The position numbers and the translations under genes were made by a program. Of a DNA stretch of 44,907 bases, positions 10,530 to 19,896 are shown in pieces. The stretch spans positions 1 to 44,907 of the forward strand of contig SLID01000045.1 in NCBI GenBank assembly GCA_007135805.1. The letters are read 5' to 3'. The notes below the pieces were generated by a model. It saw nothing but the letters and a program-made list of their open reading frames with translations. It was not told where the DNA came from and made no database searches. How positions within the stretch are numbered: position 1 is the stretch's first letter; each line of letters begins with the position of its first letter. Source of the DNA: Candidatus Omnitrophota bacterium (GTDB lineage: Bacteria > Omnitrophota > Gorgyraeia > Tantalellales > Tantalellaceae).

Positions 10530-10663
10530 GAAAGTAAAAACAAGCTTTTTTATATTTAACTAAAGCCTGCCAAGGGTCGGTAGTGTTGGAATGGACCGGA
10601 GAAGATCAGAGCATAGTATAGTTGTCTGTCTTAGGAAAGTTTTTGCGGGAAAAAGAAAAAAAA

Positions 10664-10740
10664 TGGGGTGAGCGACGGGATTTGAACCCGCGACAACCTG
10701 AGCCACAGTCAGGCGCTCTACCAGCTGAGCTACGCCCACC
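10664..10740 (-). tRNA. tRNA-His(GTG)
   Basis: Cloverleaf, anticodon loop CT-GTG-GC, G-1 opposite C73, encoded CCA. Confidence 0.95.
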
Positions 10741-10764
10741 ACCGCATTTTTTTGTTTCGTTTTG

Positions 10765-11121
10765 TGGCACGCCCGGCAGGATTCGAACCTGCTACCCTCT
10801 GCTTAGCTTACCACTCCGATTTACATCGGCCTCTTTGTAAGAACAGAGTTGTGGCCTGGACTTTATCTTGGGCATCTCAGCCCCACCGTGTAAAGTCTCT
10901 ACACTCGACACGCAAGGGCGCGTCTAGCTCGGTATTGTCCTCATCGAAAGAGGATATCCACCGAATTAGCGGTGTCCACTTCAAGGGTTCGTTTTCCCGC
11001 ATGAAGGCTCCCGTTCCCGCTGGTTTAAGCGGAGGGTCCGGCTTCCGCGGTATAAAAAAACCTCCCGCGGTACATGGACCCGTTGAAAGGCAGATGCTCT
11101 ATCCAAATGAGCTACGGGCGC
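10765..11121 (-). tRNA. tRNA-Arg(TCT) interrupted by a group I intron (exons 11121-11087 and 10806-10765)
   Basis: Joined exons give a 77-nt cloverleaf: acceptor GCGCCCG/CGGGCGT, D-loop with Arg identity A20 (GGATA), anticodon arm TCTGC-CT-T|CT-AA-GCAGA, GTTCGAAT, CCA. Confidence 0.9.
10807..11086 (-). ncRNA. Group I self-splicing intron (280 nt, no homing endonuclease ORF)
   Basis: P element GCTAATTCGGTGGA (10957-10970), Q GGACAATACCGAGCTAG (10924-10940), R GTGTAGAGACT (10894-10904), S AAGATAAAGTCC (10858-10869), P3 CACCG/CGGTG, 5' exon ends in U, intron ends in omega-G. Confidence 0.9.
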
Positions 11122-11214
11122 GCGTTTCAAAGACCGATCACATTGATCTTCCGAATTTATCTTATCCCATCAGTAGTAAAACACAAAAGCTGTTATATTT
11201 CAACAGGACTTTTG

Positions 11215-11298
11215 TGGTGCGGGCGGAGGGACTCGAACCCCCACGGTAAAACCACTAGCTCCTAAGGCTAGCGCGTCTGCCAATTCCGCCACGCCCGC
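11215..11298 (-). tRNA. tRNA-Leu(TAG)
   Basis: Cloverleaf with variable arm, anticodon arm CTAGC-CT-TAG-GA-GCTAG, CCA. Confidence 0.95.
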
Positions 11299-11364
11299 GA
11301 TATGCCCGGTAACCGGGGATGCGCTACTGAACGGTTTTCGGCAAAATAACTGCCGCGACAAAAC

Positions 11365-11442
11365 TGGTCGGGAAGGTGGGATTCGAACCCACGACCCCCT
11401 GCTCCCAAAGCAGGTACGCTAGCCAAACTGCGCCACTTCCCG
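11365..11442 (-). tRNA. tRNA-Pro(TGG)
   Basis: C1-G72, anticodon arm CCTGC-TT-TGG-GA-GCAGG, CCA. Confidence 0.95.
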
Positions 11443-11490
11443 CGCGTTGAACCCGGCAATTGTTTCGTGAGGCCGGGAAAGAACTTCCAC

Positions 11491-11519
11491 ATTATATCAA
11501 CCTGTTTTACCTAAGTCAA
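11491..11519 (-). promoter_or_regulatory. Sigma70 promoter of the Pro-Leu-Arg-His tRNA operon
   Basis: TTGACT-17 bp-TATAAT about 50 nt upstream of tRNA-Pro. Confidence 0.8.
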
Positions 11520-19792: not shown

Positions 19793-19819
19793 GGGTATTC
19801 CTTATGGGGCGGTGACGCT

Positions 19820-19896
19820 TGGCGCGCCCGGCAGGACTCGAACCTGCGGCCAACTGGTTCGAAGCCAGTTGCTCTATCCATCTGAGCTACGGGCGC
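19820..19896 (-). tRNA. tRNA-Arg(TCG)
   Basis: Cloverleaf, A20, anticodon arm ACTGG-CT-TCG-AA-CCAGT, CCA. Confidence 0.93.

Follow-up and report, generated by a model that had tools for sequence, protein, structure and literature searches.

The window analysed here, a 44,907-nucleotide (nt) stretch of contig SLID01000045.1 from Candidatus Omnitrophota bacterium (assembly GCA_007135805.1), carries on its minus strand a cluster of transfer RNA (tRNA) genes in the order Pro(UGG)-Leu(UAG)-Arg(UCU)-His(GUG) (10664-11442), in which the arginine gene is interrupted. The interrupted gene, including its encoded CCA, occupies 10765..11121 (-). We consider it very likely, judging from its sequence and that of its relatives, that this gene specifies a precursor tRNA-Arg(UCU) in which a 280-nt group I intron, of the type of the small bacterial tRNA introns, separates U34 from C35. 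The 5' half (11121-11087) comprises the acceptor stem, the D arm and the anticodon stem, ending in UCUGC-CUU (GCCUU), and the 3' half (10806-10765, CUAAGCAGA...GCCA) supplies CUAA-GCAGA, the variable loop, the T arm, the acceptor stem and the CCA end. Exactly 280 nt (11086-10807) lie between these halves. The base preceding the insert is a U (11087) and the last base of the insert is a G (10807).

The 357-nt stretch was compared by BLAST with 61 genomes, namely G000 and a further 60 that are related. The alignment is interrupted at query positions 35 and 316, and most relatives have both pieces immediately next to each other. The 5' exon (11087..11121) thus contains tRNA positions 1-34 and ends with C32 U33 U34, and the 3' exon (10765..10806) starts with C35 U36 A37 A38 and runs through the CCA end. 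G002 and G003, two genomes of the same genus, each have an ARAGORN call for a 77-nt tRNA-Arg(tct) without interruption, within a Pro(tgg)-Leu(tag)-Arg-His(gtg) cluster as in the window. The exons of the window are 97-100% identical to these genes and 100% identical to that of G002, while G001, the third genome of the genus (75% complete), gave matches to other Arg genes only. Because the uninterrupted same-genus genes are contiguous at this point, the junction U34|C35 and the anticodon UCU are fixed: the orthologues equal exon 1 plus exon 2 exactly, and removal of the intron restores a canonical tRNA with a 7-nt anticodon loop. Four read runs were examined, including DNA run X1 and RNA runs X22 and X15. 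In X1 the 5' junction is spanned by one contig piece that shows no difference, and the 3' junction by two shorter ones that extend less than 31 letters to one side of it; the junctions are no assembly artefact. The initial annotation had proposed two tRNA halves 280 nt apart and an Arg(UCU) gene split at 34/35. Both statements proved exact, the former by sequence and BLAST and the latter through the G002 and G003 orthologues.

The gene order of the cluster is kept in G002 and G003. In G023, a member of the same family, the Pro, Leu, Arg order is kept and the His gene lies upstream of Pro. Most of the intron-bearing loci fetched from the window's class have a Pro or His gene near the split gene. 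Five of 17 intron-bearing Arg(UCU) genes (L041, L045, L046, L048, L049) show a U-C mismatch at anticodon-stem pair 29-41 (columns 5 and 356 of alignment A1, introduced below), which adjoins the pairs that hold the exons together.

The flanking His, Leu and Pro genes are found by default ARAGORN and by the Rfam tRNA model alike, but the split Arg gene by neither. With its intron option, ARAGORN takes the gene for a tRNA-Lys(ttt), 97 nt long and interrupted at 37/38 by a 260-nt intron, a call that we rejected as it is contradicted by the uninterrupted orthologues. In the relatives, calls made with this option scatter over Ser, Glu, Ile, Gly, Pyl, SeC and Leu. The suggestion that standard tRNA finders could miss or miscall the gene is therefore borne out in both of its parts. 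Of the 37 tRNAs identified in the assembly, which is 90.45% complete and consists of 137 contigs, the split gene is the only one for Arg(UCU); an intronless Arg(UCU) gene, for which a check had been suggested, does not occur among these 37. AGA accounts for 19.5% of the Arg codons in 606 long open reading frames (ORFs). Elsewhere in the window, at 19805-19896, ARAGORN calls overlapping tRNA-Arg(tcg) genes on both strands. The Rfam tRNA model backs the minus-strand gene (19823-19896, 72.2 bits), and the plus-strand call looks like a mirror artefact.

The insert itself (10807..11086, minus strand, as are all features described below for the window) was identified as a group I intron through an alignment of homologues, covariation and profile matches; it contains no ORF of 60 or more amino acids. 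Alignment A1 consists of the window's intron and 16 ORF-less homologues, the long forms L013, L016 and L052-L054 being excluded on account of their ORF inserts of about 450 nt. The structure tested on it comprises the anticodon stem, P1, P2-P6, P7 (in a pseudoknot with P3), P8, P9 and P9b. Standard pairs are formed in 98.8% of 977 cells, compared with 35.5-47.5% after the 3' partners were shifted by 1-3 columns. Changes on both sides affect 28 of the 58 pairs, and not one of the five measures applied was attained by any of 500 shuffles. Compensatory pairs occur in each of P2, P3, P5, P6, P8, P9 and P9b, and P4 and P7 are invariant. The larger core alignment A2 brings together 48 sequences, namely the window's intron, the 16 homologues, three loci of a sister subtype (subtype B, see below) and 28 ORF-less Arg(UCU) introns from metagenome-assembled genomes (MAGs), several of them labelled as other phyla; two over-long sequences and four duplicates were removed before aligning. 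Here 98.3% of cells pair, as against 30-45% after sliding.

Going through the fold from its 5' side, the P2 hairpin (10979..11006) shows changes on both sides in seven of nine pairs. The P3 5' strand CACCG (10970..10974) pairs with 10888-10884 in 100% of cells, four of its five pairs being compensatory. The P4-P5 domain (10929..10964) is made up of P4 (10964-10960 with 10933-10929) and P5 (10954-10950 with 10942-10938). P4 is invariant inside the subtype, and four of its five pairs are compensated between subtypes: in A2, UCGGU/ACCGA is replaced by UGCAA/UUGCA in 11 sequences. P5 has three compensatory pairs out of five in A1. In the P6 hairpin (10907..10924) all four counted pairs are compensatory, and its loop is the site of the endonuclease ORF in long relatives. 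The P7 5' strand, G[A]GACUUU with a bulged A (10892..10899), pairs with 10864-10858, and the P3 3' strand CGGUG (10884..10888) closes the P3/P7 pseudoknot, as judged from the pair counts in A1 and A2. P8 (10870..10883) pairs in 100% of cells, with three of four pairs compensatory across phyla in A2. It is followed by J8/7 (AAGAU) and the P7 3' strand (AAAGUCC) (10858..10869), conserved in all homologues. The P9 domain (10810..10855) contains P9 (10855-10851 with 10814-10810; three of five pairs compensatory in A1), P9a (10848-10831), which was read from the sequence only, and P9b (10830-10815; five of six compensatory), whose loop GUAA (10824-10821) conforms to GNAA in 17 of 17 sequences.

P7 is presumed, by analogy, to be the guanosine-binding helix, of which a bulged A is typical; the G-binding pair was likewise placed by analogy. 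With its bulged A, G[A]GACUUU/AAAGUCC is invariant in 48 of 48 sequences of A2 apart from a single switching pair, one of the seven in the helix, which is compensated (U-A in 30 and A-U in 18). The P7 pair left open in our core motif is complementary in 134 of 135 distinct core-motif contexts. The final intron nucleotide, omega-G (10807), is a G in 17 of 17 homologues; it is also present in 69 of 69 further complete Arg(UCU) cases, a set for which U(-1) and G were themselves selection criteria.

At the 5' splice site, after 11087, the 5' strand of P1 (11085..11089) combines exon C32 U33 U34 with intron U+1 C+2 and pairs with 11012-11008, i.e., with the internal guide sequence GGGAG (11008..11012), in which G 11010 wobbles with U34. 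The exon pairs C32-G, U33-A and U34.G are invariant in 17 of 17 sequences. The fourth pair, between the G before GAG and intron position +1, is C-G in nine and U.G in eight. The hexamer GGAGCC, which includes the GAG, stands directly 5' of P2 in all 17 sequences. The two G's 11011-11012 can pair either with intron +1/+2 as part of P1 or with C35 U36 of the 3' exon, where they may form a 2-bp (base pair) P10. The initial annotation had described the insert as a group I intron with a U(-1).G splice pair and omega-G, a P/Q/R/S-type core, P2 and P3, and had named GAG 11010-11008 as guide and the adjacent GG as able to form P10 with the 3'-exon CU. The core elements are present and covary in the homologues, the guide is invariant and correctly positioned, the P10 pairing is possible by sequence, and the pairing frequencies together with the subtype-B homology described below uphold the group I assignment as a whole.

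What sets the window's copy apart is the length of the P1 loop. Between the 5' splice site and the guide lie 4-9 nt in nine of 17 homologues, compared with 72 nt (11084-11013) in the window. This L1 loop (11013..11084) holds an insertion of about 70 nt, which a free-energy fold arranges into two hairpins and which is absent in nine of 17 homologues; the other eight, the window and seven relatives, carry L1 insertions of about 25-120 nt. In the window the insertion is flanked by two copies of AACGGG, one inside L1 (11084-11079) and one running into the guide (11015-11010). The rest of the genome yielded no second copy of either the L1 insertion or the intron. At L040:1450-1714 (-), L1 contains a diverged tandem second copy of the guide-P2 segment. 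This hints that the L1 insertions of the family arise by local duplication, a plausible origin.

Several observations weigh against the presence of an active group I intron in the window. At gathering score, neither the Rfam group I intron model RF00028 nor any other Rfam family gave a group I match in the window. The same set of models yielded none on 10600-11500 at an expect value (E) of 10 or less, and at this E RF00028 had no match on the whole genome either. Applied to 20 homologous loci, it produced one weak partial match (20.9 bits, E 0.48). P1 has only three exon pairs and closes over a 72-nt loop, and the free-energy fold of the P1/L1 stretch alone puts the exon in a different register, with a modest z-score of -2.2; this register was not adopted for P1. 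The window's P2 contains a U-U mismatch, and at its P9b closing pair an A stands in place of the U present in 16 of 16 relatives. RNA runs X22 and X15 cover the tRNA exons only (at least 90% likeness) and leave the intron uncovered, and neither run holds a splice-site joint that is assignable to the organism. In addition, a second, intact Arg(UCU) gene may lie in the missing ~10% of the genome, because the assembly is only 90% complete. A single 10806->11087 joint was seen in DNA run X1; such a joint is expected from intronless relatives. The reads as a whole speak neither for nor against splicing.

The silence of RF00028 (cut-off 50 bits) extends to the window's subtype, which this model does not reach, in agreement with the finding that none of its 12 seeds is bacterial (10.1101/2020.01.27.920355). 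In the window's class RF00028 matches 94 of 151 genomes at E of 0.01 or less, 77 of them above the cut-off. Four RF00028 matches coincide with core-motif matches (L186-L189) and constitute subtype B. All four are tRNA-Arg(UCU) genes split at 34/35, and three of the four are above the cut-off (62.3, 56.0 and 53.7 bits; the fourth scores 47.5 bits). An nhmmer profile of A1 matches subtype B end to end (profile positions 1-219; E = 3e-28, 9.4e-28 and 3.4e-23), and the fourth locus, cut by a contig end, still gives E = 1.3e-13. Subtype B shares with the window the tRNA, the splice sites, the GGAGCC guide and the P2/P3/P8/P9 layout, and differs in P4 (UGCAA/UUGCA; window UCGGU/ACCGA), in P7 (GACUAU/AUAGUC; window GACUUU/AAAGUC) and in a longer J6/7. 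Since the RF00028-passing subtype B aligns over its full length, the window's intron is a homologue of introns recognised by the curated model. The same profile matches three of 12 other RF00028-scored tRNA introns collinearly (E = 2.4e-7, 1.4e-4 and 1.7e-3), the remaining nine giving no match below 0.01. The window's J8/7-P7 stretch aligns to J8/7-P7 of an RF00028-scored intron, and the Rfam structure line of one profile-matched intron places P3, P4, P5, P6 and P8 as in the present assignment.

The initial annotation had held that the lack of a group I covariance-model hit would refute the intron. Formally there is no such hit (nothing at E of 10 or less), yet this counts for less than the existence of a sister subtype that occupies the identical site, is recognised by RF00028 and shows homology along its whole length. 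RF00028 serves to detect group I introns and does not define them. A Rfam match to YrlA (33.5 bits, cut-off 69) was discarded as it covers the tRNA-like parts only. The 12 best RF00028 loci of the class (L174-L185) are all split tRNA genes, seven of which ARAGORN calls Tyr(gta). Inspection by eye identified two of these seven as Tyr(GUA) 35/36, L182-L184 as Asn(GUU) 35/36, and L177 and L185 as Lys(UUU) 33/34.

The failure of RF00028 on the window, together with the ARAGORN model of a 260-nt intron at 37/38, might be taken to mean that the insert is no ribozyme at all, and is instead a protein-spliced intron of the bulge-helix-bulge kind, a miniature transposable element or an assembly chimera. 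We regard this as extremely unlikely. The ARAGORN model demands a 97-nt 'tRNA-Lys' that contradicts the uninterrupted orthologues, and the covarying P2-P9 fold with its RF00028-scored homologues suits no other element type. Moreover, the genome holds no second copy, and the contig pieces from X1 span both junctions.

A second alternative accepts the group I ancestry of the insert and holds that this particular copy no longer splices, for example owing to the L1 insertion, so that the gene would be a pseudogene and AGA would be read by an unassembled Arg(UCU) gene. The 72 nt between 5' splice site and guide, the two mismatches relative to the family, the absence of the intron and of its splice joint from X22 and X15, and an assembly of 90.45% completeness in 137 contigs could all be accommodated in this way. 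Against it, the window's copy agrees with 99 of the 100 columns that are invariant in the other 16 sequences and forms 56 of the 58 pairs, and its exons do not differ from the functional G002 gene. L1 insertions of 25-120 nt in eight of 17 homologues indicate that the family tolerates them, and the single Arg(tct) gene of the relatives occupies the same place. A degenerate copy is, in our judgement, very unlikely.

If, as we favour, the intron is active, the gene would be transcribed together with the neighbouring Pro, Leu and His tRNA genes, and the intron would fold into P1-P9 including the P3/P7 pseudoknot. C32-U33-U34 would pair with the guide GAG (11010-11008), with U34.G as wobble, across the structured P1-loop insertion of about 70 nt. 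A free guanosine bound in P7 would then attack after U34, the terminal G (10807) would move into the guanosine site, and U34 would be joined to C35. During these steps the exons would be kept together mainly by the anticodon stem and the 2-bp P10; that the anticodon stem of the tRNA holds them together, exon-intron contacts being minimal, is probable by analogy with the Leu(UAA) intron. The product would be a 77-nt tRNA reading AGA.

This scheme could also be too simple in one respect, namely if the intron needs help from a protein to splice in the cell, for instance from an RNA chaperone or a factor resembling a maturase, because the ribozyme alone is too weak with so short a P1 and P10. Three exon bp in P1 and about 2 bp in P10, with P1 formed across a long loop, would be in keeping with such a need. 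On the other side, the window's intron is without an ORF, and no helper candidate was found, although none was sought. Self-splicing does occur in the classical Leu(UAA) intron, which has this same short CUU/GAG P1 and relies on the anticodon stem. A requirement for a helper appears unlikely.

A BLAST search with the intron core covered 401 sampled genomes of the window's class and detected the core in 20 of them. Besides the window's own, 19 loci were fetched; in all 19 the core lies inside a split tRNA gene, and 18 adjoin tRNA-Pro or tRNA-His. The core motif is present in 46 of the 401 class genomes and a reversed control pattern in none. Within the window's own family it occurs in none of 23 other genomes, and in neither of the two others of its genus (0/2), and the introns nearest to that of the window, at 80-81% identity, are found in other families. 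Such a sporadic pattern in the class fits gain by horizontal transfer, and the window's intron was probably acquired in this way within the class.

A scan across phyla with one genome per species returned at least 119 matching stretches, of which 80 loci were examined; at least six of the 80 are class loci already counted. Among the matches listed, Omnitrophota are the most frequent, and the MAG record titles further name Acidobacteriota, Planctomycetes, Elusimicrobiota, Anaerolineae, several Bacteroidota, Ignavibacteria, Patescibacteria, Saccharibacteria, Armatimonadetes, a deltaproteobacterium and Clostridium. For 75 of the 80 listed loci, ARAGORN run with its intron option placed a split tRNA around the motif. 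These were spliced in silico under the U(-1)/omega-G rule with a product of 72-78 nt, since an untightened version of the screen was too permissive (ARAGORN accepted long variable arms). Arg(UCU) 34/35 fits 69 of the 75, 26 of which also allowed another tRNA product. By eye, four listed loci (L086, L088, L091, L092), from Planctomycetes and Patescibacteria/Saccharibacteria MAGs, are Lys(UUU) 34/35 with the intron after CUU, and two from Clostridium MAGs (L082, L118) are Tyr(GUA) 35/36. The five listed loci left uncalled are truncated; four have an Arg(UCU)-type exon end and one has neither, again by eye.

In the long forms the P6 loop contains an ORF (136-154 amino acids; L013:1396-1806 (-); L016:1056-1520 (+)) that matches the Pfam family PF11645, a PD-(D/E)XK endonuclease (E = 1.7e-28 and 5.3e-25), as well as PDB entry 2OST (E = 2.1e-6). 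We take 2OST to be I-Ssp6803I; the entry itself reads 'putative endonuclease'. An I-Ssp6803I-type endonuclease of this ORF family (PF11645; 2OST) belongs to a tRNA-fMet intron, whereas the 280-nt intron of the window contains no endonuclease ORF. A Shine-Dalgarno-like AGGAGGTGA stands ahead of the long-form ORF, whose 3' end overlaps with the P6 3' strand. The intron family is large and sporadically distributed and, judged from these sequences, would be endonuclease-mobilised.

Among known systems, the window's intron most resembles in its site the tRNA-Leu(UAA) intron, which is likewise small, inserted at 34/35 after a 5' exon ending in CUU that implies a short P1 with a GAG guide, and terminated by G. 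The junctions of the Leu(UAA) intron are written CUU/a...g/AAAA (10.1101/2020.01.27.920355). The window differs in its host, Arg(UCU), in its 3' exon, CUAA instead of AAAA, and in its L1 insertion of about 70 nt. By an analogy drawn from site and P1, not from a sequence comparison, we take the window's intron to work like the Leu(UAA) intron. Retargeting through the shared CUU, considered here without Leu(UAA) intron sequences, is consistent with the presence of the same core after CUU in Lys(UUU) 34/35. The alpha-proteobacterial Arg(CCU) intron 'Arg.5Ug' and the Azoarcus Ile(CAU) intron 'Ile2.5Ug', compared by description only, are also compact bacterial anticodon-loop group I introns without P5abc. 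They differ from the window in being inserted at 36/37, and the Arg isoacceptor is CCU. Both are marked IC3 in the curated database (as given in 10.1101/2020.01.27.920355).

Introns of subgroup IC3 are compact, lack P5abc, and possess a P2 hairpin and a P9 region with a GNRA loop. The window's architecture is compact as well, with a P2 hairpin and a P9 GNAA loop, and by this likeness its subgroup may be described as IC3-like.

The curated database lists four bacterial tRNA-intron types, all IC3, namely Leu(UAA) 34/35, Arg(CCU) 36/37, fMet 33/34 and Ile2(CAU) 36/37, and the preprint that reports this raises the number from 4 to 21, with the individual types listed in table or figure images (10.1101/2020.01.27.920355). 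Provided that genomes of this kind were in its data set, Arg(UCU) 34/35 is very probably among the 21, because subtype B scores well above the RF00028 threshold of 18-20 bits used there. Full-text literature searches turned up no passage in which a group I intron of tRNA-Arg(UCU) is named, the 21-type table of the preprint lying outside the text searched. A term search of a 2014 review (PMC3984707) likewise found neither 'UCU' nor 'tRNA-Arg'. The cyanobacterial 'tRNA-Arg group I introns' of PMC5733544 were set aside as not comparable, being 22-49 nt long and located in Arg(ACG) and other tRNAs. The initial annotation had thought the Arg(UCU) 34/35 site undescribed. This holds to the extent that no text naming it was found, but the site is not rare, occurring in dozens of MAGs from many phyla; these MAGs and the 21 types of the preprint make the novelty smaller than had been assumed.

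A broader interpretation, which we put forward tentatively and consider rather doubtful, is that the intron belongs to a subfamily undescribed in words and unseen by the Rfam model, which spread by PD-(D/E)XK homing into Arg(UCU) 34/35 of about a dozen phyla or groups and moved to Lys(UUU) 34/35, through the shared CUU, and to Tyr(GUA) 35/36. If this is true, current annotation under-counts Arg(UCU) genes in these groups, and the window's copy shows that P1 can be formed across a structured L1 insertion of about 70 nt.

The points of interest are modest: the subtype is invisible to standard tools, and P1 closes over a long L1 insertion. Default tRNA finders report no Arg(UCU) gene here, though AGA represents a fifth of the genome's Arg codons. 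Because the finders and the Rfam intron model are both blind at this locus, completeness checks and inferences on codon capacity go wrong at the Arg(UCU) gene in Omnitrophota-like and other uncultured bacteria. The occurrence of one intron core in Arg(UCU), Lys(UUU) and Tyr(GUA) provides material on how homing introns switch target. As a compact, ORF-less ribozyme with a very short P1 over a long insertion, the window's intron would offer a natural test of how tRNA structure may replace intron-exon pairing.

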